This document shows, piece after piece, positions 524 through 46,931 of a DNA stretch of 50,219 nt. The DNA is from Shigella phage phi2457T. The notes under the pieces are model-generated. The model had not been told where the DNA came from and made no database searches. It saw only the letters and a list, made by a program, of their open reading frames with translations. Position 1 is the first letter of the stretch, and the number at the start of each line of letters is the position of its first letter. A program made the position numbers and the translations under genes. The stretch lies in sequence record MH917278; one strand, given 5' to 3'.

Positions 524-1039
524 ATGAGCAATACCAATCAGGAATTAAAAATCACCGATATGATTCGACTAACCTGCGATGTAATGTACCGCGACAAAGG
601 TATGACCGAGTTCTCTTTCGTTGCTGATGATATGGCCATCGAGGCCGCGCGATTCTACTTCCGGGGCCAGGAGGTAAGCGATGCCGATCTTGAATCTGCC
701 GCTGCCGGATGGGTGGACCAGAACCAGGGGGAGGTAGAGAAGAGATTCAAGTCCGCTTTCATTACTCCGATCATTACCCGGCACTTTTGCAAGTACGGCA
801 AGGTGGCAAAGGTGAAGGTGGGCCGGAATGACGCCGCAATCACAATGATAACCGTTATCGTTACAGACGAAGAGGTTCCGGTTAAGAAGCGCCGTAGCCG
901 GAAAAAAGTTAGCCTGGCAGACTGCCTGGATTCGTTTGATGTTGATGTTATCAAGCTATCCGATAGCGAGTTAATGGTTCGTGATGTGAATGAGATCGTG
1001 CGACAGATGAAAGCACATATTGAAAAGTGTGGACTGTAA
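524..1039 (+). CDS. hypothetical protein (171 aa)
   Basis: ORF track; ATG preceded by aagaggg SD; first ORF after noncoding leader. Confidence 0.5.
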   Translation: MSNTNQELKITDMIRLTCDVMYRDKGMTEFSFVADDMAIEAARFYFRGQEVSDADLESAAAGWVDQNQGEVEKRFKSAFITPIITRHFCKYGKVAKVKVGRNDAAITMITVIVTDEEVPVKKRRSRKKVSLADCLDSFDVDVIKLSDSELMVRDVNEIVRQMKAHIEKCGL

Positions 1040-1053: not shown

Positions 1054-1071
1054 ATAGCACTTTTTGTTAAA
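1054..1071 (+). promoter_or_regulatory. conserved intergenic element copy
   Basis: atagcactttttgttaaa immediately after stop of 524..1039. Confidence 0.45.
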
Positions 1072-1129
1072 GCCCGGTCGAGCGGATCGGGTATTATCTT
1101 CTCATCGACACGATACAGAGGAATCGAAG

Positions 1130-1326: not shown

Positions 1327-1797
1327 ATGGCGACAATTACCGTATTTCTTGCTAAAGATGAGATTGATGGCGAAATGTCATTCTTCGCGTTTGAGCACAA
1401 GACCGGATCGCACTGGCATATGTACAGCCACTACACGGTCATCGATATCAACTCATACCGCGCAAACTCACTTACTGAAAAGCTGGGTTGCTTCATTGGA
1501 GCTATCAAGGTGAACAATGGCTGCGAGTGGGCAGATGAGCACGAAGATCGCCGCATGTGCAATATGATTAACCCGGTCTATCTTGAGTCGTTCGATCTTG
1601 ATGCTGATGTGGCTATTAAGGTGAGAAAGTCGGGTGAGTTGTTGCCAGGGATGCGTGTGCTGACTGGTTACTCGGGCCGTAAGGTGTGGCGCACTGTATC
1701 CAAGATTCGCCAGCGTTCGGCAACATGCTATAGCGTGTTCTTTGATGACGGCTGGAATGAGGTTGCTGGTAGTAACGTGAAGTATCTTACCAAATAG
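1327..1797 (+). CDS. hypothetical protein (156 aa)
   Basis: ORF track; SD gagg upstream; stop codon TAG lies inside the conserved element at 1794. Confidence 0.5.
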   Translation: MATITVFLAKDEIDGEMSFFAFEHKTGSHWHMYSHYTVIDINSYRANSLTEKLGCFIGAIKVNNGCEWADEHEDRRMCNMINPVYLESFDLDADVAIKVRKSGELLPGMRVLTGYSGRKVWRTVSKIRQRSATCYSVFFDDGWNEVAGSNVKYLTK

Positions 1798-1813
1798 CAC
1801 GAATTGTTAAAAC
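1794..1813 (+). promoter_or_regulatory. conserved intergenic element copy
   Basis: atagcacgaattgttaaaac; followed by hairpin ggggta/tacccc with ctatagt in the loop, then leader catcaaaacgagatacc and SD. Confidence 0.5.
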
Positions 1814-1875
1814 AGGATCGGGGTATCTTGCTATAGTTACCCCATCAAAACGAGATACCAACCAGAGGATTCACC

Positions 1876-2106: not shown

Positions 2107-2112
2107 ATAATC

Positions 2113-2626: not shown

Positions 2627-2818
2627 ATGGCTGATTTTATGCACCAAATGATTGCAGTATTCAAAGGTAGCGAAGATGAGGAAGTAAAGGAATGCTTTAC
2701 CTTCAACAAGTCTTATAGCGCGTCGCTAACCAGCTTCGGGAACATCTCATTGCTTGATGATAATGGCGACCCCTGGATATTCGACGAAGATACTGATTGC
2801 TTCGAAATTAAAGAATAG
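2627..2818 (+). CDS. hypothetical acidic protein (63 aa)
   Basis: ORF track; stop TAG lies in the conserved element at 2815. Confidence 0.45.
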   Translation: MADFMHQMIAVFKGSEDEEVKECFTFNKSYSASLTSFGNISLLDDNGDPWIFDEDTDCFEIKE

Positions 2819-2834
2819 CACTTTTTGTTAAAAC
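2815..2834 (+). promoter_or_regulatory. conserved intergenic element copy
   Basis: atagcactttttgttaaaac, hairpin ggggtt/aacccc with gatatagt in loop. Confidence 0.5.
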
Positions 2835-2888
2835 TCAATTCCGGGGTTGCGATATAGTAACCCCATCGATAACGAACGAGGATTTATC

Positions 2889-3106: not shown

Positions 3107-3595
3107 ATGAAAATTAAATTACTTTGCACTGGCGGTTACAAGGGCTTTACTCGCGACCTGGAATCTGACCCTATTATCGTTGACGCCGTGAAGTGCAATG
3201 ATAGCATTGGCGGCTACCGCGTCAAAGTCGATGACCTGGTTAAAGCTGGCGTGTACGATCTCAATTGCGGCCTATCGGTTAGTCCGGTATTTGGCCCGGC
3301 TGACTTCAACGAGAAGGACGGAACTATGTTCTTTTTCGATTGGGAAGTGCGGGCAAACATCAAGCCTCGCAAGGTTCGACTTCTCAACAATGGCGGTTAT
3401 CCTATGCTACCAGGTTATGAGAATCGCACATTCCCGGTTATTGTTGACTTTGAAGAAATAACCACACACTTAGCTTATATCAACGGTGAACAGCTTCATG
3501 CTGTTGGATTCGTGGGAGGTATGAATCAAGAGGCGCTGTGCTTCTTCCATCGCGAATCAGAGCCGTTCGATATTGAGTGTGAGCTAGTCTACTAA
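3107..3595 (+). CDS. hypothetical protein (162 aa)
   Basis: ATG with SD gagga 8 nt upstream; N-terminus MKIKLLCTGGYKGF resembles the paralogous family. Confidence 0.5.
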   Translation: MKIKLLCTGGYKGFTRDLESDPIIVDAVKCNDSIGGYRVKVDDLVKAGVYDLNCGLSVSPVFGPADFNEKDGTMFFFDWEVRANIKPRKVRLLNNGGYPMLPGYENRTFPVIVDFEEITTHLAYINGEQLHAVGFVGGMNQEALCFFHRESEPFDIECELVY

Positions 3596-3611
3596 GCACG
3601 AATTGTTAAAA
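3594..3611 (+). promoter_or_regulatory. conserved intergenic element copy
   Basis: aagcacgaattgttaaaa, hairpin ggggatt/aatcccc. Confidence 0.45.
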
Positions 3612-3660
3612 GGGGATTCGTCCTGACTGGTACAATCCCCACATCGACCACCAAGAGGAA

Positions 3661-4152: not shown

Positions 4153-4301
4153 TGGCTGCATGGGTATTGATTATCTTGATGAGCACCGGGCCGGATCACG
4201 TATACATGGAAAGTCAGCAAGCATGTAACAAGGCTCGGGAAGTGATTGCAGAAAACAAGCCGTTCGGATACGAAGTAAAAACAATGTGTGTTAAACGATA
4301 G
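4152..4301 (+). CDS. putative small membrane protein (49 aa)
   Basis: ATG overlaps previous stop (ATAATGG); hydrophobic N-terminus MAAWVLIILMS; stop TAG is the TAG of the conserved element at 4298, as for neighbouring genes. Confidence 0.3.
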   Translation: MAAWVLIILMSTGPDHVYMESQQACNKAREVIAENKPFGYEVKTMCVKR

Positions 4302-4316
4302 CACGAATTGCTAAAC
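4298..4316 (+). promoter_or_regulatory. conserved intergenic element copy
   Basis: atagcacgaattgctaaac, hairpin aaggcca/tggcctt with gatatagt in loop. Confidence 0.5.
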
Positions 4317-4381
4317 CTTCCGCAAGGCCATTTGATATAGTGGCCTTATTGAAGCACGGCAACCAATCAGAGGAATCAGCT

Positions 4382-4588
4382 ATGGCTACACGACTCACGC
4401 AGTGGCAGATTTACGACAAGGCTTCACGCCTTCGTGAATCACTTCGAGGTCTGACACCGAACGATCGCATAGAAATCATCGGTCATGCATTGCACGAACT
4501 AACGCCGCATGACGTAACCTATCATTCTTGCGGCAATAAATTTTGGAACGTAACATTCGAGGTGAAGGAAGATGAGCAAAACTCATAA
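4382..4588 (+). CDS. hypothetical protein (68 aa)
   Basis: Internal ATG (MATRLTQ) preceded by conserved leader aaccaatcagaggaatcagct. Confidence 0.45.
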   Translation: MATRLTQWQIYDKASRLRESLRGLTPNDRIEIIGHALHELTPHDVTYHSCGNKFWNVTFEVKEDEQNS

Positions 4589-5642: not shown

Positions 5643-5861
5643 ATGGCTACTATCATGACAGCGGAAGATGCAGCGCGTGACGCAGTGGAAGGGATGCGCC
5701 CAAATACCTCCAGAATCGCACACTACTACAATTTTGACGTGTCGGCAGTGCAGCTGGTCCATGAAATTTTAAGGCTTCCACAAGTCGATTCAGCGCGACT
5801 GGTGACGTGCTTAAAAAATTATTTTTGCATCACTATTAAAACGAATAGCACGAATTGCTAA
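5643..5861 (+). CDS. hypothetical protein (72 aa)
   Basis: ORF track; weak SD; 3' end overlaps the conserved element. Confidence 0.35.
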   Translation: MATIMTAEDAARDAVEGMRPNTSRIAHYYNFDVSAVQLVHEILRLPQVDSARLVTCLKNYFCITIKTNSTNC

Positions 5862-5864
5862 AAC
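5845..5864 (+). promoter_or_regulatory. conserved intergenic element copy
   Basis: atagcacgaattgctaaaac, hairpin ggggaat/attcccc. Confidence 0.5.
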
Positions 5865-5918
5865 CTATCAAGGGGAATGCGCTATGATTCCCCTACACCA
5901 ACGAACGAGGGAACACTC

Positions 5919-6365
5919 ATGAAACATTTGATTTGCATTGATACACCTAACAATGAACACACCCTGCACGGCATTGGAATGTTCAAAGGCCACTACATGA
6001 CAGCAAGCATTTATGATGCGCATCGAGGCGATGGCGATCTAATGATTACTTCAAAAGAAGTTAATCCGTACATCATGCAGAATCTCGGGAACAATGAGTA
6101 TATGGCTTACGGCTGCAACGCGGTGTACAAGCATATCAAGATCCGCAAGCGCGTAGTTCGCGCATTCAAGAAGATTGCAATTAAATACTGGAAGATGAGC
6201 AAGAAGGACGCCGGAACATGGGCGCGTAACGTTGCTGATTCATACTTCTATCGTAACGGTGAGTCGTGCTACTTTTTGATCGATGATATTCATGACAATT
6301 ACGGCGGCTCATTCAGTCAGGAAGAGTTTGATAGCTGGGCTGAATACGAGATCAGTTGCTGGTAA
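5919..6365 (+). CDS. hypothetical protein (148 aa)
   Basis: Internal ATG (MKHLICID) after leader acgaacgagggaacactc. Confidence 0.5.
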   Translation: MKHLICIDTPNNEHTLHGIGMFKGHYMTASIYDAHRGDGDLMITSKEVNPYIMQNLGNNEYMAYGCNAVYKHIKIRKRVVRAFKKIAIKYWKMSKKDAGTWARNVADSYFYRNGESCYFLIDDIHDNYGGSFSQEEFDSWAEYEISCW

Positions 6366-6384
6366 TAGCACTAATTGCTAAAAC
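6365..6384 (+). promoter_or_regulatory. conserved intergenic element copy
   Basis: atagcactaattgctaaaac, hairpin aagggcat/atgccctt with gatagaa loop. Confidence 0.5.
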
Positions 6385-6448
6385 TTGCTCAAGGGCATTT
6401 GATAGAATGCCCTTCGTTGAGTTAAGCAACCAATCATAGGAATAAATC

Positions 6449-7090: not shown

Positions 7091-7663
7091 ATGAAAACAG
7101 CTATCATTTTAAACGGCGCTCCTGGAGCAGGCAAGGACACTATCGGATGCATCCTGGCTGACACTTACGATCATGTAGCTTTGCGCAGCTTCAAAGCACC
7201 AATGTTTGAGATTGCTCGGGCAATCCTGGGTGAGGCTAACTACGAGTATTTCATGTTCTTGTATGGGAACCGTATATACAAAGAAGAGCCAGATTCCATC
7301 CTGAACGGTAAAAGCCCGCGCCAGTTTATGATCTGGATTAGCGAGGAAGTCATTAAGCCACAGTTCGGAAATCGCTTCTTCGGCATGCGAGCGGAAAGCA
7401 AGGTCAAAGAATCAGACTCCCTTTCGGTATTTACTGATGGTGGATTCAAAGATGAGGTATTGCAGATGATTGAAGGTGATATCCAGGTCAAGCTATGCCG
7501 AATCCACCGCAAAGGCTGCAACTTTGACAACGACAGTCGTGATTATATTTACCTGGAAGATATGATCGGGGTTAATGGTTATCAGGAGTGTGATTTCTTC
7601 TCTGTCGAAGGTCATCCAGAAATTACCGCTCAGCACATAGCCGCTACGTTCATCAACAAATAG
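7091..7663 (+). CDS. P-loop nucleotide kinase (dNMP-kinase-like)
   Basis: Walker A GAPGAGKDT at N-terminus; size ~190 aa typical of small NMP/dNMP kinases. Confidence 0.5.
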   Translation: MKTAIILNGAPGAGKDTIGCILADTYDHVALRSFKAPMFEIARAILGEANYEYFMFLYGNRIYKEEPDSILNGKSPRQFMIWISEEVIKPQFGNRFFGMRAESKVKESDSLSVFTDGGFKDEVLQMIEGDIQVKLCRIHRKGCNFDNDSRDYIYLEDMIGVNGYQECDFFSVEGHPEITAQHIAATFINK

Positions 7664-7679
7664 CACGAATTGCTAAAAC
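7660..7679 (+). promoter_or_regulatory. conserved intergenic element copy
   Basis: atagcacgaattgctaaaac with downstream gatatagt. Confidence 0.5.
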
Positions 7680-7735
7680 GTCGGTGGGGTGATTTGATAT
7701 AGTTACCTCATCGACAACGAAGAGAGAAAATCGAA

Positions 7736-9045: not shown

Positions 9046-9212
9046 ATTGATCATTCGAAAGATGGGGATGTTTTGCCAATCATGCAAACAATCTTTCGAG
9101 ACTGAATTATCGGCAACCAGTCAGGCAGAAGCCATCGCGAAAGCAAAAAAACTTTCCGGCGCAAACCTTGACACTCACAAAATAAACATTGAATTAATTA
9201 AGGAGATCTAAC

Positions 9213-10088: not shown

Positions 10089-11657
10089 ATGATTCAATGG
10101 GAAGACCTCGACGCAACTCAGAAGTTAGCGATCAAGAAAATGAGTGAGGCGAATTTCGAAAAGATGATTAGGATCTGGTTCCAGCTTATGCAGGCTCAGC
10201 AGTTCCAGCCTAACTGGCATCACCTTTATTTATGTCACGAAGTTGAGGAAATAATTGCAGGTCGACGCGGGAACACTATCTTTAACGTCACGCCAGGTTC
10301 GGGTAAAACCGAGGTGTTCTCAATTCACCTTCCTGTTTACGCAATGCTCAAGTGCAAGAAGGTACGAAACCTTAACGTTTCATTTGCAGATAGCCTTGTA
10401 AAGCGTAACAGTAAGCGAGTTCGTGAGATTATCAGCAGCAAAGAGTTCCAAGAGTTGTGGCCCTGTAAGTTCGGCACATCGAAAGATGAAGAGATGCAAG
10501 TTCTTAACGAAGATGGCAAGGTCTGGTTCGAGCTAATATCCGCAGCAGCCGGAGGTCGAATCACAGGTTCGCGTGGTGGCTATATGATGCCGGGATTCTC
10601 CGGGATGGTAATGCTCGACGATATAGACAAGCCTGACGATATGTTCTCAAAGGTTAAGCGTGAGCGTACTCACATGCTATTGAAGAACACCATACGATCC
10701 CGTCGTATGCACAACGAGACGCCGATTATCGCAATCCAGCAGCGACTGCACGCGCAGGATTCAACTTGGTTTATGATGAATGGAGGTATGGGTATTGAGT
10801 TTGACCAGATCTCGATCCCGGCACTGGTGACTGAAGAATACGGAAAGACACTTCCTGACTGGTTGCAGCCTTATTTCGAGCGCGACGTTTTGTCGTCTGA
10901 GTATGTAGAATTGGATGGTGTTAAGCATTATTCATTCTGGCCCAGCAAGGAGAGTGTTCACGACCTATTGGCTTTGCGCGAAGCGGACCAGTACACCTTT
11001 GATTCTCAGTACCAGCAGAAGCCGATCGCACTTGGCGGCTCCGTGTTTAACTCGGAATGGTGGACTTATTACGGCAGCAGTCTTGACGCTAACGAGCCAG
11101 ATCCGGGCAAATATGATTACCGTTTCATCACTGCCGATACCGCTCAGAAGACAGGTGAACTAAACGACTACACGGTGTTTTGCTTATGGGGTAAGAAAAA
11201 CGATAAGGTTTACTTTATCGACGGCATTCGCGGCAAGTGGGAAGCGCCTGATATGGAGAAACAATTTACCGCCTTCGTGAATCAGGCATGGAGGCACAAT
11301 AAATCAATGGGTGTGCTTCGCAAAATCTACGTGGAAGATAAGGCGAGCGGGACGGGCTTGATTCAGAACTTAAGGAAAAAGACTCCGATCTCAATCACAC
11401 CATTGCAGCGTAACAAAGATAAAGTTACCCGAGCTATGGATGCTCAGCCAGTAATTAAGGCCGGGCGCGTGGTTCTTCCAGAAGAGCACCCTATGCTTGC
11501 GGAAATCATCGCAGAACATAGCGCCTTCACTTATGATGATACTCACCCTCATGATGATATTGTCGATAACTTCATGGATGCGGCGAACATCGAATTGCTG
11601 ACCATTGATGATCCTATCGAGAGAATGAAGCGACTCGCTGGGATGGTTAAGCGGTAA
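10089..11657 (+). CDS. terminase large subunit
   Basis: 522 aa; N-terminal ATPase region with P-loop-like VTPGSGKTEV and acidic DDIDKPDD, C-terminal nuclease-like region; followed by portal. Confidence 0.85.
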   Translation: MIQWEDLDATQKLAIKKMSEANFEKMIRIWFQLMQAQQFQPNWHHLYLCHEVEEIIAGRRGNTIFNVTPGSGKTEVFSIHLPVYAMLKCKKVRNLNVSFADSLVKRNSKRVREIISSKEFQELWPCKFGTSKDEEMQVLNEDGKVWFELISAAAGGRITGSRGGYMMPGFSGMVMLDDIDKPDDMFSKVKRERTHMLLKNTIRSRRMHNETPIIAIQQRLHAQDSTWFMMNGGMGIEFDQISIPALVTEEYGKTLPDWLQPYFERDVLSSEYVELDGVKHYSFWPSKESVHDLLALREADQYTFDSQYQQKPIALGGSVFNSEWWTYYGSSLDANEPDPGKYDYRFITADTAQKTGELNDYTVFCLWGKKNDKVYFIDGIRGKWEAPDMEKQFTAFVNQAWRHNKSMGVLRKIYVEDKASGTGLIQNLRKKTPISITPLQRNKDKVTRAMDAQPVIKAGRVVLPEEHPMLAEIIAEHSAFTYDDTHPHDDIVDNFMDAANIELLTIDDPIERMKRLAGMVKR

Positions 11658-12995: not shown

Positions 12996-13746
12996 TGGCG
13001 TTGCTACTCAGTGGCGCTATCCTGAAATGAGCGAGCGCGCAATGTCGCGCTCCCTACAGGATATTGCAGCCAAACTAACTGAAAAAATGCGTGACGAATT
13101 AAAGCTGATGAAATTTGATGCTACCGACGAAGAGATAGATCAGGCAGAAAGGTCATTGCTTAATTACGTTGAATCACTCATCGCGCCGATTATCGGTTCT
13201 CTATCATCCGTTGCGCTCACGATCTATAAATTCAACTCTAAGCAGTGGCTGCGCATCGCTCGCAATGCTGGAGGTAAGAAGAATCAAGCCGTGATGCTAC
13301 TTGCCCTGATTGGTCCTACCGCTGCCGAAAGTTGGTACTCAGGACAATATAATCTGTGGCGATCGCAGGTGACTACTTCTATCAGGAAATTTGCCGCCAA
13401 CATGGTTACTGATTTCACTGATAAACTTCGTGCGGCATCCGGTCAGGGCAAAAGCAAGGATTTTGTTGTTGAGCTTGCTAAGGAGCGATTTGGTATTTAC
13501 CGGAATTGGGCCAAAAATAGAGCATCGGGAATTGTCGGAACCTGGAACAGTAGACTAATGCGGCAGCGCATAAAAGACGCTGGTGTCTCTTATTATTTCT
13601 GGCGAGGGGTGATGGATTTACGCGAACGTGAAAAACATGTAAGATGGGAAGGTAAGCGTATAGCGGTAGATTCCGATCACGTATTTCCGGGTGAAGAATA
13701 CAATTGCCGCTGTTGGGCTGTTCCAGACTTTTCCACAGGAGATTAA
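12985..13746 (+). CDS. head morphogenesis protein (SPP1 gp7 / Mu F-like minor capsid)
   Basis: 253 aa after portal; conserved C-terminal region ending ...VFPGEEYNCRCWAV typical of this family. Confidence 0.65.
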   Translation: MKINGVATQWRYPEMSERAMSRSLQDIAAKLTEKMRDELKLMKFDATDEEIDQAERSLLNYVESLIAPIIGSLSSVALTIYKFNSKQWLRIARNAGGKKNQAVMLLALIGPTAAESWYSGQYNLWRSQVTTSIRKFAANMVTDFTDKLRAASGQGKSKDFVVELAKERFGIYRNWAKNRASGIVGTWNSRLMRQRIKDAGVSYYFWRGVMDLREREKHVRWEGKRIAVDSDHVFPGEEYNCRCWAVPDFSTGD

Positions 13747-17611: not shown

Positions 17612-18022
17612 ATGAATCAAGAAACTTTAATTTCAGTTGTTGAGCAAGTGCGAAAGCTGGTCCCTGCACTTCGCAAAGTTCCAGATGAAACTCTTTATGC
17701 ATGGGTTGAAATGGCTGAGCTATTCGTATGCCATAAGACCTTCAAAGACGCATACGTCAAAGCGCTTGCTCTTTATGCTTTACATCTTGCTTTCCTTGAC
17801 GGAGCACTAAAAGGTGAAGATGAAGATCTGGAATCTTACTCACGACGCGTTACGTCTTTCTCACTGAGCGGTGAGTTTAGTCAGACTTTTGGTGAGGTTA
17901 CGAAAAACCAGTCAGGAAACACAATGCTTTCGACGCCGTGGGGTAAGATGTTTGAACAACTTAAAGCGCGACGCCGTGGTAGGTTCGCATTAATGACCGG
18001 ACTCCGTGGAGGATGCCACTAA
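17612..18022 (+). CDS. head-tail connector / head completion protein (putative)
   Basis: Position after major capsid; internal ATG with SD; identity by synteny. Confidence 0.45.
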   Translation: MNQETLISVVEQVRKLVPALRKVPDETLYAWVEMAELFVCHKTFKDAYVKALALYALHLAFLDGALKGEDEDLESYSRRVTSFSLSGEFSQTFGEVTKNQSGNTMLSTPWGKMFEQLKARRRGRFALMTGLRGGCH

Positions 18023-19980: not shown

Positions 19981-20000
19981 AACCAATCAGGAGAAATATC

Positions 20001-20674: not shown

Positions 20675-23548
20675 ATGGTTGATAAGGTAGCAGGTCTATC
20701 GCTTGACGTTGATGTTTCGACAGTGCAGCGCGCCGTCAAGTCATTGAAAGAGTTTTCAAAAGCTAACGACCAAGCCGCTGACTCTATGGGGTCTTTAATC
20801 AATGAGGCCGAGGTTGCAAAACAGAAGGCTAAAGAGCACGCTGAGCAACTTAAGCGCCAGCGCAAAGAGTACGAGGCTGTAGAAAAGGCAATCGATCCTA
20901 CAGTATCAAAAATGGAAAGGCTGAAGATTGCATCTCAGCAGCTTGATAAACTCTGGCAAAAGGGCGTTGTTCCAGATGAAACATTTTTCCGTTTGGGTGA
21001 AATGCTGGACATGCAAAATGCAAAACTTGCTCGCAGCCGAGCCATGCTTACTGAAGAGGGGCAGGCAGCATTGCAGGAAGCGAAAGCAAAAGAGCAGGCA
21101 GCAGCGAAAAACAAAGCGTTCATGGATTCCCTGAACAGTCAGGTTAACGCTATTGGCAAAACTCACGCAGAGTTAATGGAACTGAAAGCGGCTCAGCTTG
21201 GACTATCAAATGAAGCAGCGCCACTGATCGCAAAACTGAAAGAGCAGGGTCGAGCCATGAATGCCGCAGGTATTAGCGCGGGGCAATATAGGCAGGCAAT
21301 GCGAATGCTTCCTGCACAGATTACCGACGTCGTTACATCTCTTGCGTCCGGTATGCCAGTTTGGATGGTTGCCATCCAGCAAGGTGGTCAAATCAAGGAC
21401 TCGTTCGGCGGGATCGGGAATACGTTTAAGGTATTGCTCAGCTATATTAATCCGGTCACAGTTGGTGTTGGTGTTCTTGTCGGCTCTTTAGGTCTTCTTG
21501 CGAAAGCTGGTTATGACTCTTACAAGTCAATAACTGATATGCAGAAGGCTCTTGTTGAGACTGGAGGTTATGCAGGAGTCACGGCTGAAGAACTTGATTC
21601 TGTTGCTAAAAAGGTGTCTCAGACGAGCAATTCAACAATTTCAAGCATTCGTGAGATTGTTACTGAACTTGCCAGTACGGGGAAGTATACGCGAGAGCAG
21701 ATTCAGAACATCACAAAGGCTACCGCTGAGTGGTCGACAGCAACCGGTAAATCAGCAAGTAAAATCATCGCTGAGTTCGATAAAATCGCAAGCGATCCTG
21801 TAAAGGGTCTGGCTAAACTTAACGAGCAATACAACTTTTTAGAAAAAGGGCAACTGACATATATCGATACGCTAAGCCGTACTAAGGGTGAAACAGAGGC
21901 AGTGTCTGAAGCCACGAAATTATTCGCCGATGTAATGGAAAAACGAATGAAGTCGATCGCTGATAATGCTACCCCTCTGGAAAAAATGTGGAACGATATT
22001 AAGCAGTGGGCCTCTGATGCGTGGGGGTGGGTTGGGGATCATACTCTCGGAGCATTAAACCTGATTATTGACGTAGTTCAGGGTACGGTAATTCAGGTAA
22101 AAATGATTCTGGCGAAGGGTGATGAGTACATCTCAAACTTTATAGCCTCTGCAATTAAGGCTACGCAGTCTCTGCCTGGAATGAGTGATTTCGGCGCTGA
22201 TGTACTAAAGGAACAGGAGAATATTGTAAAAAGTTCTCGTGACAACTACGATCAGTTAGCTTCAGAGCTTGATGCCATCAACGCCCGTGTTGAAAAAGGT
22301 GAGATGGGATACATTGAAGCAATGAAGCAGCGCCGTACTCTTGAAAAGCAGTATAGCCAGGAAACTAAGGACGCCATCAAGGAAGAAGCTAAAGAGATCG
22401 AAAAGCGAAACCGTGAACGAAATAAGCAGTCGAAAATTTTACGCTCACCTACAGAGCAATTCGATAAGGAGTTAATTTCACTCAAAGCGCAGCTTAAGGT
22501 TTTGCAGGAGCACAAGGAGATCGGGCAAAAAATATCAGCACAGAGAAAGGCGCTTTTTACGACTGAGGCTACAATTGCTGTTCTTCGAGAAGCTAGTTCT
22601 AAGCGTCAGCTATCTGCGGAAGAAAAAGCACTACTTGCAAACCAAGAGAAGGTTTTAGAGCTTGCGAAACAAAAGGCTGAGATTGGCGATCAGATTGTTA
22701 AGCAGCAGCAGTTGAACGCACTTACCGATAAATCACTGAAATTTGTCAATGATTTGACGGCAGCTACAGAGCAGCTAAACGCGTCTCGCGGGATGAGCAC
22801 TCGAGAAATGGAACGACAAGCGGAACTGGCTAAGATCACCACTGACTATATTAATGCAGGTGGCAGCGAAGGAGATGAAAAACTCCAGAACATGATCAAG
22901 GCACAAAATGATTACTATGCTGCGGAAGATGCCAAGCGCGCTGACTGGTTAGCTGGTGCTGAAAGCGCATTTGCAGATTACGGCGATTCTGCAATGGATA
23001 TGTACGGCAACGTGTATGATATCGCGTCAAGTTCACTTAACGGAATGAGTGATATGATGACCCAATTCCTTACTACAGGTAAGGCAAATTTTGAGGACTT
23101 TGCGAAAAATATCATTAGCATGATTATCAAGATGATTGCTCAGATGGTAATCTTCAATACGATCTCAGGCATGACGGGAGGTAAGACATGGAGTTTTGCA
23201 AGTGGATTGACCTCTAGCGCTTCTGCGGCATCACAGGCAACTCCTACGCCTGCCGTCTCTGGTTTTAGGTCTTTATCTTCAGGCGTTGCCGTTACCTCGC
23301 TTGCTGCCGCTGCGGGTAGTGTTGCAACCTCTGGATTTAACGCATCTAAATCCGCACCGAAGGCAGCGAACCAGTCAGCAGGCGGGACGGTCGTTGATGT
23401 TAGGGGTATGGAGGTTAAAGTTGACAACGGTTCAGATCCGAGAGGAATTTCTCAGGGCGTAGAAATGATGTTCAAAAAAATGATTCGAGAGTCTTGTTCG
23501 CAGGGCGGTGAGGTTTACAATTACATTCAGGAAAAAACAGGAGGCTAA
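20675..23548 (+). CDS. tail tape measure protein
   Basis: 957 aa, Ala/Lys/Glu/Gln-rich coiled-coil sequence with hydrophobic segments near 21400 and 23100; position after G/G-T. Confidence 0.9.
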
Positions 23549-24766: not shown

Positions 24767-25497
24767 TTAATGCAAAAATTAAACTTGAAATCATGACTCA
24801 CGCTCAAGAAGAATACCCCCGCGAATGCTGCGGGGTAGTTACCCAAAAAGGACGCGTGCAAAAATACCATCGCATTGATAACGTGCATCGCGATCCTGAG
24901 AATCATTTCATGATGGACGCAGTGCAATACGCATGTATTGAGGATGACGCAGACTCAACCACGATTGCGATCGTTCACAGCCACACAGGAGACGGGGCTA
25001 CAACTCTTCCCAGTGCGCACGACACATGCATGTGCAACGAGATGGAAGTTACATGGATTATTGTTAGCGTACCGGAAGGAGATATGCGATTTGTTAAGCC
25101 TGAGAAATTACCTCTGATTGGTCGACCGTGGTCGTTAGGATCATTTGACTGTTACGGGCTAGTAATGGCGTGGCACAAAGAGCACGGCGTAGAGTTACGC
25201 GATCGCCGATTGAATTTTGAATGGTGGAAACCTGAGTACGGAATTAATCTCTATCAGGATTATTACAAGCAAGATGGATTCGTTGAGATTCCAGATCAGA
25301 ATAACCCATCATTCGGGGATATGGTAATCATGCAGATAGGGCAAAATGTTCCGGTATGGAACCACGCAGGGATTTACCTGGGTGATAATCAGATCTTGCA
25401 TCACGCCTTTGGCAAACTTTCGCGACGTGATATCTATTCCGGCTGGTATCAGGATCATACTGTTTTAATTGTTCGCCATAAGGATCTTAAATTATGA
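24763..25497 (+). CDS. tail assembly protein (lambda gpK-like; JAB/MPN plus NlpC/P60 domains)
   Basis: JAMM-like motif HSHTGDGATTLPSAHD and C-terminal Cys/His region typical of NlpC/P60; ATGA overlap with L. Confidence 0.7.
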   Translation: MINAKIKLEIMTHAQEEYPRECCGVVTQKGRVQKYHRIDNVHRDPENHFMMDAVQYACIEDDADSTTIAIVHSHTGDGATTLPSAHDTCMCNEMEVTWIIVSVPEGDMRFVKPEKLPLIGRPWSLGSFDCYGLVMAWHKEHGVELRDRRLNFEWWKPEYGINLYQDYYKQDGFVEIPDQNNPSFGDMVIMQIGQNVPVWNHAGIYLGDNQILHHAFGKLSRRDIYSGWYQDHTVLIVRHKDLKL

Positions 25498-29100: not shown

Positions 29101-29620
29101 GAATAACGAGGCAGCACTTTCTCAAAAACTTGACTCGTGGAGTAACGCCGATTCGACTGGTGCAATGTACGGCGTCAAGCTGGGCCTTAAGTATAATGGT
29201 CAGGAATACAGCGCAGGTATGGCTATGTCTCTGATTGGTTCTGGTGCGGCTGTTAAGGCTCAGATTCTTTTTGAGGCATCTCGATTTGCAATCATGACTG
29301 GCATGAACGGTCAGACTCAGTACCCATTCGTTGTTGAGAATGGCCAGGTTATTCTAAGTAGCGCGATCATCAAGGATGGCTTTATTACTAATGCCATGAT
29401 TGGAAACTGGATTCAATCTAACAATTGGGATGGGAATAATGGATGGGCCATAAACAAGAATGGCGACGCTTCATTCATGAATGCAACAGTGAGGGGTAGA
29501 ATTTACGCAAATAACGGAGAGTTTGCATTTAACGGAACAAATAACACGGTTCAGATAAACAATAACGGTATCACGGTCAACTTACCTAACGGGGGTCGAG
29601 TGGTTGTTGGTGTCTGGTAA
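26171..29620 (+). CDS. central tail fibre / host specificity protein (lambda gpJ-like)
   Basis: 1149 aa; position after I; FN3-like region and C-terminal coiled-coil with repeated units (ELREVIATETGA / TDIREAIANETEA). Confidence 0.85.
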   Translation: MIQKVISGSKGGSQKPHKPVEMEDNLISINKIKILLAVSDGEVDETFNLKQLMFNSVPVQNEDGSFNFEGVTAEFRPGTQTQEYIKGMEDSSSEVTVNREITTDNPYTISVTNKTLSAIRIKMFMPRGVRIESNGDKNGVRVEYEVQQAVDSGSFETILTDVIEGKTMSGYDRSRRVNLPNFNNQVIFRIVRKTPDSDNSNVVDAIQVKSYAEVIDAKFRYPLTGLLFVEFDSKMFPNQLPTISIRKRWKIINVPSNYDPESRTYNGNWDGTFKKAWTNNPAWVLYDLMINQRYGLDQKELGISVDKWALYEAAQYCDQMVPDGKGGTEPRYLCDVIIQSQTDAYKVIRDICSIFRGMSFWNGESISVIIDRPREPAYIFTNDNVVNGDFSYTFASEKSMYTTCNVMFDDEQNMYQQDVEPVFDREATLRFGNNVTSITAIGCTRRSEANRRGRWILKTNLRSTTVNFATGLEGMIPTIGDVVAIADNFWSSNLTMNLSGRLLEVSGSQIFLPFRVDARAGDFIIVNKPDGKPVKRTISSVSADGKTIEVNIGFGFPVKPNTVFAIDRTDIALQQYVVTKIDKGDDDEEFTYKITAVEYDPNKYDEIDYGVNIDDRPTSIVEPDQIPRPENVQVSSESRIVQGMSVETMIVSWDKVPYAVFYDVQWRKDNGNWQNVPQTANKEVYVEGIYAGNYQVRVRSVAGSGTTSGWSNIVAATLTGKQGEPGRPINLTATDDVVFGIRTKWGFSDGSGDTAYTELQQSPDGTVDNASLLSLIPYPQHEYYHSPMPGGNIVWYRVRTVDRIGNVSQWTDFVRGMASTNVDDIIGEISVDIENSPGYEWLVDNATDNAAQNAANAEAAIENALANDKDAIYMKKENGKRKAEYTKSLKLIADETQARVTAIEQLKASFGDQISASNSELREVIATETGALSREIDQLKAEIGDDIQASLTDIREAIANETEARTQADLTLSAQLGNNEAALSQKLDSWSNADSTGAMYGVKLGLKYNGQEYSAGMAMSLIGSGAAVKAQILFEASRFAIMTGMNGQTQYPFVVENGQVILSSAIIKDGFITNAMIGNWIQSNNWDGNNGWAINKNGDASFMNATVRGRIYANNGEFAFNGTNNTVQINNNGITVNLPNGGRVVVGVW

Positions 29621-30613: not shown

Positions 30614-30837
30614 TCTTTAGTTTTGATTGACACCTTGCCGCTAAAGTTGCCCTGATCGTCGTCGGATGACAGACCTTTGAATCGCATATCAATTTCGCCA
30701 GCAGGAACCTTTTGACCATCAACGAATCGCATCATGCAAGAACCGTATGCGTAAGTAACGCAGTCGCCATTTTTAAGATTCTGAGCACAACCAGTCAGGA
30801 TGAATGCCGCAGCGATAATGGTGATTAACTTTTTCAT
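30607..30837 (-). CDS. superinfection-exclusion lipoprotein (Cor/Llp-like)
   Basis: 76 aa; signal peptide MKKLITIIAAAFILTGC with lipobox LTGC; adjacent to putative receptor-binding gene. Confidence 0.6.
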   Translation of the reverse strand: MKKLITIIAAAFILTGCAQNLKNGDCVTYAYGSCMMRFVDGQKVPAGEIDMRFKGLSSDDDQGNFSGKVSIKTKEW

Positions 30838-31259: not shown

Positions 31260-31363
31260 TGAGCGATATAGACACGCAATTACACACCAATTACATGTAT
31301 TCGATTGACTAAACGCTGTTAATGGCTATAATGGATTCATCGTAAACGAGGGAGATAAACGAA

Positions 31364-32428
31364 ATGTTCCAGGTATTCACATCAAGTCAGCTTTCTAATG
31401 ACGAGTATCATAGCAACGAAGGTTGGGCGGCAGAGTATGTAAGCGGTTCTAGCCTTGCAGAAATTTATCAGACTTGCCCGGCTAACTGGCGATTCAAGAA
31501 GAACGAGACTACTAAAGCGCTGGATTTCGGCACTCAGTCGCACACTAACTTTGAGAGTCGAGATCTGTTTACTGCAACGTATGCGCGTTGTCCTGCTCCG
31601 TCAGAGTTTAAAGATCTTATTACTTCGCAAACGGCACTGGCAGCAAAATTAAAATCTTTTGGCCTGAAAGGCACATCCGGTAAGCAGTACCCTGACCTCA
31701 TCAAAATGATGGTTGATTGCGGTGAAGATCTCAATGTTCAATATCTTATTGAACTGATTGCTGAAGCTGAGGCGCGCGCTGAAGGAAAGCAACTGGTTGA
31801 CGCTGATAAATATGATGCCTGTATGAAGATGAGGGCCATTCTTGAGCAAAACCCAGATCATGAAGCGTGCATCAATAGCGAAACTGCGCAGCGTGAGATC
31901 TCAATTTTCGGTGAGATATCCGGCGTCAAGGTTAAGGTTCGACTTGACCATTTGGACTACAAAGAGAATGTTCCAGGTCGTGTGCTGACTGGTTATGATG
32001 AGAATGGCGATCCGGTATTTGAAGACGTGATTTTTCCTGAAGCTCTGATTATCACTGACTTCAAAACCACGATGAGCGCCAACCCGTTAGAGTTCCCGAG
32101 ACTGGCATACAATCACGGGTATTATCTTAAAATGGCCTTACAGCATGACCTATTGCGGCGTGCAATTCAGGCTGGAGCATTTGAAGGAAACTTCCCGGAA
32201 GATATTCCGATCGTAGTTCGATTGCTGGCACAGGAGAAAAAGGAACCTTACATTGCCCTTGCTTACCGCATGACTATGGAGCAAATCAGAATAGGTCGCA
32301 ATCAGTATATTAGCGTGGTCCACACTTATAAGGCTTGCTCTGAGATGGACGTTTGGCCAGGATATGCTGGCGACGCAAGCGAGATCGAACTTGAAACGCC
32401 GTCATGGGTACGATATCAAAACAAGTAA
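31364..32428 (+). CDS. putative recombination exonuclease (PD-(D/E)XK-like)
   Basis: 354 aa directly upstream of ERF and SSB genes; motif IITDFKTT consistent with D-x-K nuclease signature; assignment tentative. Confidence 0.45.
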   Translation: MFQVFTSSQLSNDEYHSNEGWAAEYVSGSSLAEIYQTCPANWRFKKNETTKALDFGTQSHTNFESRDLFTATYARCPAPSEFKDLITSQTALAAKLKSFGLKGTSGKQYPDLIKMMVDCGEDLNVQYLIELIAEAEARAEGKQLVDADKYDACMKMRAILEQNPDHEACINSETAQREISIFGEISGVKVKVRLDHLDYKENVPGRVLTGYDENGDPVFEDVIFPEALIITDFKTTMSANPLEFPRLAYNHGYYLKMALQHDLLRRAIQAGAFEGNFPEDIPIVVRLLAQEKKEPYIALAYRMTMEQIRIGRNQYISVVHTYKACSEMDVWPGYAGDASEIELETPSWVRYQNK

Positions 32429-32502
32429 ACGGCACAAATAGCTAAACAAATAATTAATGAGGTGTTATAATGCACCTCATACACCAATCAGGAGAAGTTA
32501 AG

Positions 32503-33196: not shown

Positions 33197-33610
33197 ATGC
33201 ATATTATTACTGGCGAGATCCGAAAAGAACCTAAGATTCTTGAACGTAACGGAGGGAATACTTATATAATCGAACTGGCAGAGAGCTACAAGCCTCGAGA
33301 TGGAGATCGAGAATACACCAACTACACATTCTTTTTTAGCGACGGTGGAAAGCCTGGCCTTGCTGACTGGTATCGTGAAGCGTTCCAGGTTGGTCGCGTC
33401 GTATCAGTATCATGCGAGACGTTGAAGATCTCATCACGTGAACACAATGGAACGGTTTACAATTCATTGCAGGCCGCTGACTTCCCGAAGTTGGTATTTA
33501 GTCAACGAGGACAAAGCAATCAACAACGATCACCGCAGCAACAACAGCGAACGCAATCACAACCACAGCCAAATCCTCAATCAACTTTCGATGATGATAT
33601 CCCGTTCTAA
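33197..33610 (+). CDS. ssb: single-stranded DNA-binding protein
   Basis: 137 aa, Gln/Pro-rich linker and acidic C-terminal tail FDDDIPF typical of SSB. Confidence 0.8.
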   Translation: MHIITGEIRKEPKILERNGGNTYIIELAESYKPRDGDREYTNYTFFFSDGGKPGLADWYREAFQVGRVVSVSCETLKISSREHNGTVYNSLQAADFPKLVFSQRGQSNQQRSPQQQQRTQSQPQPNPQSTFDDDIPF

Positions 33611-36972: not shown

Positions 36973-36985
36973 CTTAATTCTCCTG

Positions 36986-37005
36986 TAGCACTTTTTGCTA
37001 AAAAC
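36986..37005 (+). promoter_or_regulatory. conserved intergenic element copy upstream of helicase
   Basis: tagcactttttgctaaaaac in divergent region. Confidence 0.45.
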
Positions 37006-37066
37006 GTTTACTGTATGCCGTGTATTATATCGTAAACGATACAACGATTCAAAGGATTAAATAGCC

Positions 37067-39085: not shown

Positions 39086-39498
39086 TTACAGATAAAGGCG
39101 ATTACTTAGAGTTTTACGAGCGAGATCCTAGCGACACGCGAAAGGAGGACGCTCATCAAGTAGACTGCGTGTCCTGGTTGAAATACAATTTTCCTCAGCT
39201 TCTATTTTGGCACACAGTTAACGAAGGTGAAAAAACAATCACTTCGGCACTTAGGGATGAGCAGGCTGGATTACTTAAAGGCGTATCAGACTTTGTTATT
39301 CTGATTGGTATAAACTCACGTTACCCGTTCGCAGCTATCGAACTCAAGCGGGTTAATAAGTCCGGCAAAGGAAAGGCATCACCAGTCAGCGATAAGCAAA
39401 GGGAGTTTCTCAAAAAGGTTCGGGATCGCGGTGGATTCTCTGCCGTTGCATACGGATTTGAGCAATTCAAGCTGGCAATATACGATTTAACGAAATAG
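39082..39498 (+). CDS. VRR-NUC domain nuclease (putative)
   Basis: 138 aa; ...AAIELKRVNKSGKGKASPVSDKQREFLKKVRDRGGFSAVAYG resembles VRR-NUC; ATGA overlap with helicase. Confidence 0.5.
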   Translation: MITDKGDYLEFYERDPSDTRKEDAHQVDCVSWLKYNFPQLLFWHTVNEGEKTITSALRDEQAGLLKGVSDFVILIGINSRYPFAAIELKRVNKSGKGKASPVSDKQREFLKKVRDRGGFSAVAYGFEQFKLAIYDLTK

Positions 39499-39513
39499 CA
39501 CTTTTTGCTAAAC
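39495..39513 (+). promoter_or_regulatory. conserved intergenic element copy
   Basis: atagcactttttgctaaac then hairpin and leader caccgaaacgagagga. Confidence 0.5.
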
Positions 39514-39565
39514 ATGCCGGAATGGATTCTGGCATTATTATCTCACCGAAACGAGAGGATTAAAA

Positions 39566-40279: not shown

Positions 40280-40527
40280 TGAGCGAAAAAATGGTTCCTG
40301 TTAAATTAACTGATCAAGGGTTATGGCTTCTTTATCGCGCTACGTGCTGCGAAATTATGGAGAGAAACGGATTAACTCAAGATGTTATTGGTTGCGATTT
40401 ATGGGAGTTTACAAGTTCTCTTGATATGTCGTTCGATGAGATAAAGAATAAACACATAGAGCATTGGCCTTCAATCATTCAGAAAGACGTAGAAGAACTT
40501 AAATCCGACACGATCTTACAGCACTAA
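40276..40527 (+). CDS. hypothetical protein (83 aa)
   Basis: ORF track; ATGA overlap with dam. Confidence 0.4.
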   Translation: MMSEKMVPVKLTDQGLWLLYRATCCEIMERNGLTQDVIGCDLWEFTSSLDMSFDEIKNKHIEHWPSIIQKDVEELKSDTILQH

Positions 40528-40537
40528 TTGCTAAAAC
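40519..40537 (+). promoter_or_regulatory. conserved intergenic element copy
   Basis: cagcactaattgctaaaac overlapping stop codon, then hairpin acccg/cgggt and tatagt. Confidence 0.45.
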
Positions 40538-40593
40538 TACCCGGCGAAAGTCGGGTATAGTTATTTCATCAAAACGAAATGAGGAATAATAAG

Positions 40594-41053: not shown

Positions 41054-41363
41054 CGCAGAAGATTATCATACTATCTGGATCGGAAAAAAGCAGGTTAAGA
41101 AAATCCCTTTCTCTGATTGGTTGCCTCCTGACTTCGTTAATGTGCTTTGCACTATCGGTATGGAACATGAGTTGCGTATAGGTTACTACTCACCTGGCAG
41201 AAACAGTATGATGCTTGAGGTTGACGGAAAGCTGGTTGAGTTTAAATCGTCAGATCTAGGATTCTGGTTAAAGGCTGTGGCATGAATCTTTATTTTGCTG
41301 TAGTATTAACACCGCTAATTTCATTTTCAGTAATGTATTTCATTATCATGTAAGGATTAAAAT

Positions 41364-42515: not shown

Positions 42516-42526
42516 TTGATAAAAAC
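42507..42526 (+). promoter_or_regulatory. conserved intergenic element copy (degenerate)
   Basis: tcgcactaattgataaaaac then gggtatagt and leader catcgaaaacaaagagga. Confidence 0.4.
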
Positions 42527-42578
42527 ACCAGAAGGGATTCGGGTATAGTAACAACATCGAAAACAAAGAGGATATATC

Positions 42579-44206: not shown

Positions 44207-44270
44207 GATGTTTTCCTTCAGGTCGTTTAATTTCGATGAAACAAATATACCCGATACGAGATCGGGTGTT

Positions 44271-44288
44271 TTAACAAAAAGTGCTATT
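44271..44288 (-). promoter_or_regulatory. conserved intergenic element copy (minus orientation)
   Basis: Plus strand ttaacaaaaagtgctatt = reverse complement AATAGCACTTTTTGTTAA. Confidence 0.5.
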
Positions 44289-46376: not shown

Positions 46377-46432
46377 CACAATAAACTCCTTAGTTGACGG
46401 TGTAAATGATACACCGACAATGGTACACGCGT

Positions 46433-46869: not shown

Positions 46870-46931
46870 TTCGTTAACTCCTGATTGGTTATCTTGAATA
46901 AGGTCACTTTATCAAATGACCTTACGGCAAT

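Follow-up and report, generated by a model that had tools for sequence, protein, structure and literature searches.

Conserved 5' leaders of Shigella phage phi2457T genes as probable 3' ends of a repeated promoter-leader cassette

In Shigella phage phi2457T, gene 4382 and many other early genes on both strands are preceded by short 5' leaders that resemble one another, and the question raised by this locus is whether the resemblance belongs to the messenger RNA or to the DNA from which it is transcribed. The DNA analyzed, hereafter the window, is the whole 50,219 bp stretch of sequence record MH917278, the complete or nearly complete genome of a T1-like phage (Drexlerviridae, Tunavirus). In the original prediction two leader motifs, AACCAATCAG (motif 1) and CATCGAnAACGA (motif 2), were described as extended sequences around the Shine-Dalgarno (SD) site and were proposed to act as a translational enhancer, a standby site or a binding site for an RNA-binding regulator. 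The motifs are read here as the downstream ends of one repeated promoter-leader cassette, a reading that rests on sequence comparison and to which a probability of about 0.7 is assigned. T1-like phages are common enteric phages, candidates for therapy and notorious laboratory contaminants, and their transcription programme is essentially unmapped.

The window is approximately 95% identical overall to Shigella phage Sfin-3 (97% over positions 4000-9000), from which its set of 82 genes was transferred, and is matched by about 300 public phage records. All 11 leaders named in the original prediction were found in front of start codons, at 4382, 32503, 46869(-), 48740(-), 50060(-), 1876, 2889, 7736, 39566, 42579 and 49150(-); the sequences quoted for them are correct, while the coordinates 1846, 2865, 7700, 39540 and 42545 mark the motif and not the start of a gene. 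The start at 32503 has an SD site and is not the one annotated in relatives. The latter (32470, in the annotations of Sfin-3 and T1) falls within the -10 element TATAATG of the promoter of this Erf-like gene itself, and the in-frame ATG at 32503, with the SD site AGGAG, is the likely real start. The original prediction did not mention that a -10-like hexamer (TATAGT, TATAAT, TATTAT or CATAAT), often preceded by TGn, stands 5-6 nt before every one of these leaders, nor that the word TAGCACnnnTTGnTAAA stands further upstream. Both features point to the leaders as the downstream ends of a longer repeated unit.

This unit is a cassette of about 70-85 bp, present in approximately 21 copies in the window, of which the cited leaders form the 3' ends. 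Read from 5' to 3', it opens with a box, ATAGCACnnnTTGnTAAAA, followed by a GC hairpin of variable sequence and by an extended -10 element (TGnTATAGT). The dinucleotide C(-1)A(+1), some 25 nt of A/C-rich leader, the SD site (GAGG or AGGA) and the ATG come next. All +1 positions are predictions from the -10 element (the seventh base after the hexamer). Relative to them the box spans -50 to -31 and the extended -10 element is T-15 G-14 n followed by a TATAGT-like hexamer, with a variable spacer of 17 nt between the box and the (TG)n/-10 hexamer and 5 nt between the hexamer and CA. The arrangement is rigid: counted from the G of GCAC, the distance to the hexamer is exactly 35 nt in 19 window copies (22 in the count made across phages), and in two more the hexamer is shifted by 1 nt. 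The same 35-nt geometry was found in 16 copies in T1, 18 in TLS and 12 in Klebsiella phage KP36 (in 45 kb, at 51% GC), and also in Rtp and in T1-like metagenomic contigs. Every named member of the Drexlerviridae examined contains the cassette, across subfamilies and from 45% to 51% GC.

A profile was made from 124 non-redundant cassettes (<85% mutual identity) from T1, TLS, Rtp, the window and T1-like metagenomic contigs. The box carries 1.4-2.1 bits per position and the spacer from -30 to -16 about 0 bits; downstream, G-14 (102 of 124), T-15 (58 of 124), the hexamer and C-3 stand out. C-1 is present in 84 and A+1 in 95 of the 124 cassettes. Positions +2 to +12 hold 0.05-0.6 bits each, most of them 0.2-0.6, with TCGAAA at +2 to +7 (0.2-0.6 bits), AAA at +10 to +12 and the SD site around +14 to +18. 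The commonest 5' ends are CATCGA (21), CATCAA (15) and CACACC (5); a second sub-family of leaders reads TATTGAAG...AAGCAA(CCAATC)AGGAG. The leaders have a median length of 25 nt (interquartile range 24-28 nt). The similarity does extend beyond the SD hexamer, as had been claimed, and the same leader types are found again in T1, TLS, Rtp and KP36.

The two motifs are anchored differently. Motif 2 lies 5 nt (6 nt in a few cassettes) after the -10 hexamer and represents the predicted start site together with the first 11 transcribed bases. CATC[GA]A is always located at -1 to +5, and its distance to the ATG varies from 21 to 32 nt. Because motif 2 is fixed to the -10 element while the distance to the ATG floats, it is a promoter or start-site element and is not linked to the SD site. 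For the word CCAATCAG the spacing to the ATG, measured from its end, is 10-12 nt in all 13 of 13 leaders, and that to the start site ranges from 6 to 16 nt. The constancy of the former is explained by its CAG, which belongs to the SD site (CAGGAG or CAGAGG). Motif 1 is, in the leaders, an SD-linked element and in addition one copy of the nonamer ACCARTCAG, which recurs throughout the genome. As a plain genome-wide word with up to two mismatches, CATCGANAACGA occurs 39 times against 18.2 expected (2-fold; reached in 0 of 100 shuffles), and its significance lies in its fixed position after the -10 element. This leader type can do without the upstream box: a leader of the type CATCG..AAACGAGG also follows a canonical TTGACT-16-TATAAT promoter in front of gene 31364.

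An RNA-level function, in which the leader acts as a sequence-specific translational enhancer or as the site of an RNA-binding regulator, would explain why conservation passes the SD site throughout the family, why CCAATCAG keeps its distance to the start codon, and why the leaders are A-rich and unstructured. The phage also encodes a DUF3850/ASCH-like protein (4572-4859) that is annotated as 'RNA-binding protein' in relatives. Set against this, CATCGA is anchored to the -10 element, the constant distance of CCAATCAG is accounted for by its CAG, and within genes the CCAATCAG word is as frequent on one strand as on the other, which is inexplicable at the RNA level. Outside the anti-SD sequence, the leader motifs match 16S rRNA no better than chance (longest complementarity 6-7 nt, equal to random 17-mers), and no Rfam covariance model matched the window at its gathering score. 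A sequence-specific RNA element is considered improbable.

From +1 to the SD site the leaders consist of 48% A, 24% C, 15% T and 13% G. Folding of +3 to +37 gave a mean of -1.9 kcal/mol and a median z of +0.42, with 69% of the sequences less structured than their shuffles. When compared with A/U-rich tracts of the S1 type, the leaders are unstructured and rich in A, yet they are C-rich and U-poor. Being A/C-rich and less structured than shuffled controls, they may plausibly serve as generic, unstructured and very short 5' untranslated regions (UTRs) for ribosome loading. Of the RNA-level roles suggested originally, standby remains plausible in this general form, and a specific RNA-binding regulator is not supported.

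The DNA from +1 to +12 might also be an operator, bound for later shut-off by a phage repressor such as the Cro-like protein encoded at 36520-36972(-). It overlaps the start site, which is the classical position of an operator, TCGAnAACGA contains a weak TCG/CGA dyad, and the Cro/XRE-like regulator is conserved in the family. The information per position is low, however, the dyad extends over 3 + 3 bp only, and the leaders fall into several sub-families. Their composition is strongly strand-asymmetric (A/C-rich), as expected for a constraint on RNA or on the initial transcribed sequence. An operator at this place is very unlikely.

Seven of the 23 homology breakpoints between the window and T1 are located inside cassettes, against 0.87 expected from the 3.8% of the genome that cassettes occupy (P = 1.5e-5, under a whole-genome null, intergenic DNA being a likelier site of breakpoints anyway). 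At 4382 the homology to T1 stops within CAACCAA and a different gene follows. These data suggest that cassettes are junctions for the exchange of gene modules. A precedent is given by the PeSL composite promoter-terminator cassettes of T4-like phages, which are short and repeated, combine an early promoter with a stem-loop and lie at the junctions of indels and replacements (PMC2839356, PMC4122927). The likeness of the cassettes could accordingly be mainly historical, with paralogous copies whose similarity is preserved by recombination or gene conversion and a leader that has no sequence-specific role; the same cassette does stand before unrelated genes in T1 and in the window, for example at 4382. 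Homogenization would not, however, spare the middle of the cassette. There the 15-nt spacer is practically without information (about 0 bits) and the arms of the hairpin are entirely different from copy to copy, in contrast to the 0.05-0.8 bits per position of -4 to +12; the pattern, moreover, persists across subfamilies and over the range of 45%-51% GC. A zero-information spacer within conserved cassettes therefore indicates that selection, beyond homogenization, maintains -4 to +12, and a mainly historical origin appears unlikely.

The boxes of the window are the already known 21-nt intergenic direct repeats aaATAGCACnnnTTGnTAAAA of TLS, T1, Rtp and Rogue1. These lie about 76 nt before start codons in TLS, and the TLS re-annotation of 2024 left their function open between stoperator, enhancer site and UP element (PMC11447400). 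The box also conforms to the binding site of the E. coli proteins MarA, SoxS and Rob, the asymmetric 20-bp marbox with its GCAC A-site and YAAA B-site. Scanned with the published working definition, gcannwwntgnnaaa, the window gives 21 perfect matches where 0.93 are expected (reached in 0 of 100 shuffles), all 10 specified positions being matched in the 21 copies. In the 124 cassettes the box is degenerate at -37 (C/T) and -41 (A/T), the same positions at which the marbox is degenerate. On the predicted starts it is in forward orientation and overlaps the -35 region with GCAC at -47 to -44. In the micF promoter (K-12 sequence) GCAC starts 35 nt before the -10 element, as in the phage cassettes, and in the cryo-EM complexes of Rob and SoxS with micF it occupies -47 to -44, with the box centered at -41.5 and the activator occluding sigma region 4. 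A consensus -35/-10 scan of positions 1-10000 detected none of the eight cassettes located there, which is consistent with such occlusion.

A box read by the host proteins MarA, SoxS or Rob is given roughly even odds. Alternatively, its reader could be a phage-encoded or virion-delivered protein of unrecognised fold, with the likeness to the marbox convergent or coincidental. About half of the copies contain a partial dyad, TAGCA-N5-TGCTA, T-40 and T-39 are conserved beyond the Martin-type consensus, and T1 grows without MarA or SoxS being induced. On the other hand, G-47 is invariant whereas its dyad partner at -37 is only C/T, and the box always points in the direction of transcription, as expected of a monomeric protein with two helix-turn-helix motifs. 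All 10 marbox positions are matched in 21 copies at a spacing identical to that of micF. No AraC-family protein was found in a Pfam search of the 56 non-structural phage proteins, among which the sole recognisable regulator, annotated 'transcriptional regulator', is Cro/XRE-like. A reader of phage origin is regarded as doubtful.

Several other interpretations of the upstream elements were tried and rejected. A phage-encoded AraC/MarA-like activator was not found among the 56 non-structural proteins, and a symmetric-dimer operator TAGCA-N5-TGCTA disagrees with the asymmetric conservation. As a canonical -35 element TTGnTA would stand 22 nt from the -10 element, and the consensus scan finds no cassette. 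A sigma-54 reading of TAGCAC-N3-TTGC has a spacing 2 nt too short and lacks the invariant GG. A sigma-32 reading of CCCCAT applies to few copies, the run of C before CATCGA being the 3' arm of the hairpin. Matches to marbox cassettes in other phage families, found in AT-rich unrelated contigs, have no -10 element at the fixed distance and are chance-like.

Boxes of the marbox type also occur outside the standard cassette, at 16197-16211(-), 19962-19976(-), 9494-9508(+), 35447-35461(+) and 103-117(-). Copies in reverse orientation precede the major capsid and the tail-chaperone genes, and another box touches the small terminase gene's SD site; such placements may be of class I type or serve repression. 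Between the divergent genes for the Cro-like regulator and the helicase (36973-37066) there is a single, nearly palindromic box, TAGCACTTTTTGCTA. With respect to the helicase promoter its position is class II, and on the opposite strand it falls within the leader of the regulator gene. Its occupancy could activate the helicase gene and block the regulator gene. In front of gene 8884 (8800-8883) there is a -10-like element with a TG extension, TTGCATAGT, but no upstream box. Its leader, GCAACAATTCAAGAGGA, is similar to the CCAATCAG type, and the whole may be a cassette copy that has degenerated or is independent of the box.

The hairpin is stable and variable in sequence. Folding of the 35 nt from -33 to +2 gave a mean of -9.8 kcal/mol and a median z of -2.6, with -6 kcal/mol or lower in 72% of the cassettes. 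Two registers were observed: in one the stem closes at -1/+2 and encloses the -10 element, and in the other it ends at -12 and is succeeded, as if by the tail of a terminator, by the -10 element and a T-rich discriminator. Compensatory covariation of the pairs is seen among the 26 cassettes of the largest register, where -24/-1 is A-T in 12 and G-C in 11, and -20/-5 is represented by six types of pair. Several of the cassette hairpins are annotated as rho-independent terminators in the T1 record. The hairpin could insulate the unit or terminate read-through, or it could act as DNA around the -10 element.

A different unit is found before late structural genes (11657-11711, 15350-15409, 16178-16269, 17230-17278, 17567-17611 and 20636-20674). 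It has a -10-like hexamer 1-3 nt before a GC hairpin, followed by a T-run that abuts the SD site. RNA initiated at the unit itself would have its first base inside the 5' arm and thereby avoid termination, to which read-through RNA would be subject; the unit looks like a re-initiating insulator or a system that requires antitermination.

From the geometry of the cassette, host sigma-70 polymerase would start at the A of CATCGA, the conserved CAT corresponding to the classical start-site triplet. Consensus match and micF-like spacing suggest that an activator of the MarA/SoxS/Rob type, bound to the box in class II position, probably helps initiation. The purine/A-rich first 10-12 nt would be the initial transcribed sequence of a strong phage promoter and would aid promoter escape. 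They would also keep the SD site single-stranded, so that the 30S subunit could load directly on a very short 5' UTR, and the hairpin would insulate neighboring units. AACCAATCAG is a separate signal, one copy of the genome-wide ACCARTCAG, whose CAG is fused to the SD site in the leaders.

Several points weigh against the promoter-leader reading. Conservation of the leader is moderate (0.05-0.8 bits per position) and divided among the sub-families CATCGA/CATCAA, CACACC and TATTGAAG...AAGCAA. Since cassettes coincide with breakpoints, recombination may contribute to the likeness of the copies, part of which may be shared ancestry through homogenization. No transcription start map for any T1-like phage was found in the literature searched, all +1 positions being derived from the -10 element. 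The original interpretation of the leaders is partly supported, in that conservation passes the SD site and is shared by related phages, and a specific RNA-binding factor might still act on them. As to the activator, T1 grows on laboratory strains in which MarA and SoxS are uninduced, the TG-extended -10 element of about half of the cassettes may work unaided, and the box could in reality be read by a phage protein that went unrecognised.

The nonamer ACCARTCAG occurs 26 times in the window (CCARTCAG 27 times) against 0.71 expected for the nonamer (37-fold; reached in 0 of 100 shuffles), and it is sharply defined, since its one-mismatch variants are at background. Only seven copies lie in leaders, always as the A variant and in sense orientation, which fits the A/C-rich leader and lets the CAG extend into the SD site. 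Inside genes there are 19 copies of CCARTCAG (18 as ACCARTCAG), 7 sense and 12 antisense. Synonymous-codon shuffling gave a mean of 4.5 intragenic copies and reached 19 in 0 of 500 trials; permutation of codon order gave a similar result, and codon usage is excluded by both as the cause of CTG-AYT-GG(T). T1 and TLS contain 25 copies each of the nonamer, and CCARTCAG is present 19 times in Rtp and 24 times in KP36 (45 kb), compared with 1 copy in lambda, 4 in 50 kb of E. coli K-12 and about 1.9 per 50 kb in other viral contigs. The nonamer is enriched in the five named Drexlerviridae examined, in Rtp more weakly and chiefly as CCARTCAG. Part of the sites have orthologous counterparts in other subfamilies, in places with a switch between A and G, and others have turned over. 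ACCARTCAG is a DNA-level, family-wide signal.

The nonamer is more evenly spaced than at random, with a coefficient of variation of 0.73, 0.73 and 0.63 against 0.94 (P = 0.07, 0.07 and 0.005). Of the CCARTCAG copies 11 are on the plus and 16 on the minus strand, and their positions show no pattern; canonical Chi is nearly absent (0-2 copies). Two of the 23 breakpoints between the window and T1 fall on an ACCARTCAG site (P = 0.17). In the cassette before gene 3661/3667 the reverse complement of the nonamer is fused to the TG of the extended -10 element, at 3623-3631(-). CTGAYTGG was observed at -20 to -13 in three promoters, this one and two of TLS (2948(+) and 47240(-)), where TGG supplies the TG, as in CTGACTGGTACAAT; it is a second fixed placement besides that fused to the SD site. 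For gene 3661/3667 the start at 3667 suits the SD site better than that at 3661. The coordinates of cassettes, breakpoints and nonamer sites are summarized in Table 1.

Table 1. Cassettes, cassette-internal breakpoints and nonamer sites in the window (+1 positions predicted)
Feature	Position	Strand	Remarks
Focal box ATAGCACGAATTGCTAAACC, 20 bp, marbox-like	4298..4317	+	GCAC at predicted -47..-44; perfect gcannwwntgnnaaa match 4301-4315
Focal hairpin AAGGCCA/TGGCCTT enclosing -10	4324..4347	+	T1 orthologue -12.9 kcal/mol, z -4.0; same-register covariation
Focal extended -10 TGaTATAGT	4333..4341	+	hexamer start 35 nt after GCAC
Focal predicted leader ATTGAAGCACGGCAACCAATCAGAGGAATCAGCT, 34 nt	4348..4381	+	+1 = A4348, predicted
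ACCAATCAG in leader of gene 4382	4362..4370	+	CAG runs into SD GAGGA (4370-4374)
Cassette before gene 1130	1054..1129	+	-10 1092-1097, +1 1104, leader ATCGACACGATACAGAGGAATCGAAG
Cassette before gene 1876	1794..1875	+	-10 1832-1837, +1 1844, leader ATCAAAACGAGATACCAACCAGAGGATTCACC
Cassette before gene 2889	2815..2888	+	-10 2853-2858, +1 2865, leader ATCGATAACGAACGAGGATTTATC
Cassette before gene 3661/3667	3593..3660	+	-10 3631-3636, +1 3643; spacer holds CTGACTGG
Cassette before gene 5919	5845..5918	+	-10 5883-5888, +1 5895, leader ACACCAACGAACGAGGGAACACTC
Cassette before gene 6449 (polynucleotide kinase)	6365..6448	+	-10 6403-6408, leader ...AAGCAACCAATCATAGGAATAAATC
Cassette before gene 7736	7660..7735	+	-10 7698-7703, +1 7710, leader ATCGACAACGAAGAGAGAAAATCGAA
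Cassette before Erf gene	32429..32502	+	box 1 mismatch, spacing 1 nt shorter, -10 TATAAT 32466-32471, leader ATACACCAATCAGGAGAAGTTAAG
Cassette before helicase gene 37067	36985..37066	+	-10 37023-37028
Cassette before Dam gene 39566	39495..39565	+	hairpin before -10 39533-39538, +1 39545, leader ACCGAAACGAGAGGATTAAAA; equivalent T1 hairpin annotated as terminator
Cassette before gene 40594	40518..40593	+	-10 40556-40561, +1 40568, leader ATCAAAACGAAATGAGGAATAATAAG
Cassette before gene 42579	42506..42578	+	-10 42544-42549, +1 42556, leader ATCGAAAACAAAGAGGATATATC
Cassette before gene 44206(-)	44207..44287	-	-10 44249-44244, +1 44237, leader ATCGAAATTAAACGACCTGAAGGAAAACATC
Cassette before helicase gene 46376(-)	46377..46449	-	-10 46411-46406
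Cassette before gene 46869(-)	46870..46949	-	-10 46911-46906, +1 46899, leader ATTCAAGATAACCAATCAGGAGTTAACGAA
Cassette before gene 47387(-)	47388..47466	-	box 1 mismatch, spacing 1 nt longer, leader ACACCAAACAAACAAAGGAATTAAAG
Cassette before gene 48740(-)	48741..48815	-	-10 48777-48772, +1 48765, leader ATCAACCAATCAGGAGAATCACCAG
Cassette before gene 49150(-)	49151..49232	-	-10 49194-49189, +1 49182, leader ATCGAAACGAGATACACATCAGGAGCAAGAAA
Cassette before gene 50060(-)	50061..50134	-	-10 50096-50091, leader (C)ATCAACCAATCAGAGGAATCGAC
Canonical sigma-70 promoter TTGACT-16-TATAAT before gene 31364	31305..31363	+	same leader type, (C)ATCGTAAACGAGGGAGATAAACGAA
Breakpoints with T1 inside cassettes	1793, 4366, 42500, 42542, 44285, 46450, 46455		
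ACCAATCAG fused to SD of late gene 20001	19982..19990	+	
ACCAATCAG in leader of gene 32503	32483..32491	+	
ACCAATCAG in leader of gene 46869(-)	46881..46889	-	
ACCAATCAG in leader of gene 48740(-)	48753..48761	-	
ACCAATCAG in leader of gene 50060(-)	50071..50079	-	
ACCAGTCAG intergenic, antisense, just upstream of SD of gene 47924(-)	47936..47944	+	
ACCAATCAG intragenic, sense	533..541	+	
ACCAGTCAG intragenic, antisense	1660..1668	-	CTG-ACT-GG in frame
ACCAGTCAG intragenic, sense	9116..9124	+	
ACCAGTCAG terminase large subunit gene, antisense	10855..10863	-	CTGAYTGG kept in T1, TLS, Rtp
ACCAATCAG intragenic, antisense	13306..13314	-	
ACCAGTCAG intragenic, sense	17907..17915	+	
ACCAGTCAG tape-measure gene, antisense	22941..22949	-	kept in T1, TLS
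ACCAGTCAG intragenic, sense	23370..23378	+	
ACCAATCAG intragenic, antisense	25114..25122	-	kept in T1, Rtp
ACCAATCAG intragenic, antisense	29231..29239	-	
ACCAGTCAG antisense in cor-like gene	30790..30798	+	at homology breakpoint with T1, Sfin-3
ACCAGTCAG intragenic, antisense	31985..31993	-	
ACCAGTCAG intragenic, antisense	33363..33371	-	
ACCAATCAG intragenic, antisense	37622..37630	-	
ACCAATCAG intragenic, antisense	39301..39309	-	TLS has CTGACTGG there; Ile/Thr codon change keeping motif
ACCAGTCAG intragenic, sense	39381..39389	+	kept in T1, Rtp
ACCAATCAG intragenic, antisense	41113..41121	-	kept in T1, Rtp
ACCAGTCAG intragenic, sense in minus-strand gene	45909..45917	-	

Two large AT-rich intergenic regions, 1-523 and 30838-31363, contain (TA)n runs, repeated CTGTTACAC/TGTGAC words and canonical sigma-70 promoters, for example TAGACA-18-TATAAT (204-233) and TTGACA-17-CACAAT (437-465). 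Both regions are candidate clusters of immediate-early promoters and possibly contain an origin, the latter because the phage primase is P4-alpha-like.

With this analysis the 21-nt repeats are tied to a full promoter architecture of box, hairpin, extended -10 element, start and 25-nt leader; about 20 predicted start sites are provided, Rob/MarA/SoxS is offered as a concrete candidate for the reader of the box, and the 9-bp word is a new lead. In the limited literature searched, no earlier description was found of the full integration of promoter and leader, the leader consensus, the identity of the box with the marbox or the nonamer, and no paper in it connected marboxes with T1-like phages. 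It is proposed tentatively, at slightly less than even odds, that T1-like phages may have about 20 promoters per genome wired, by way of near-consensus class II marboxes, to the host activators of xenobiotic and stress responses MarA/SoxS/Rob (RamA in Klebsiella) and, independently, a DNA marked approximately every 1.9 kb by ACCARTCAG. If this were true, phage expression would read the bile-salt, antibiotic and oxidative-stress state of the host, and the question of the function of the 21-nt repeat would be answered. Were host stress regulators to drive the cassettes, phage productivity would be tied to the antibiotic-tolerance regulon, which is relevant to phage-antibiotic combinations.

Among known systems, the leaders resemble the initial transcribed regions of the strong early promoters T7 A1 (ATCGAGAGGGACA), T7 A3 (ATGAAACGACAG) and T5 N25 (ATAAATTTGAGAGAGGAG), which share the +1 A within CAT, the purine-rich first 20 nt and the very short distance to a strong SD site. 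The T7 and T5 promoters are single and have a canonical -35 element, and we know of no such family-wide consensus described for T1-like phages. With the class II promoters of MarA/SoxS/Rob, such as micF, the cassettes share an asymmetric box with GCAC and YYAAA, in forward orientation over the -35 region, the 35-nt spacing and the lack of a usable -35 element. They differ from micF in the roughly 20 near-consensus copies per 50 kb and in the hairpin in or around the spacer.

The window boxes agree with the TLS-type 21-nt repeat in sequence, intergenic location, orientation along transcription and approximate distance to the ATG (box 1054/ATG 1130; box 4298/ATG 4382). The fixed 35-nt link to the -10 element, the hairpin, the start-site and leader consensus and the marbox match, all present here, are not part of the TLS description (PMC11447400). 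In architecture, which alone was compared, the cassettes resemble the T4-type PeSLs, with a repeated promoter plus stem-loop, flanks of small variable genes and a location at indel or replacement junctions; they differ from them in phage family and sequence, in having an activator-type box and in a hairpin that often encloses the -10 element. ACCARTCAG, finally, is like Chi (GCTGGTGG) and like uptake sequences a sharply defined, over-represented and family-shared word selected at the level of DNA; it differs from Chi in sequence, in having no orientation bias and in having no known reader.

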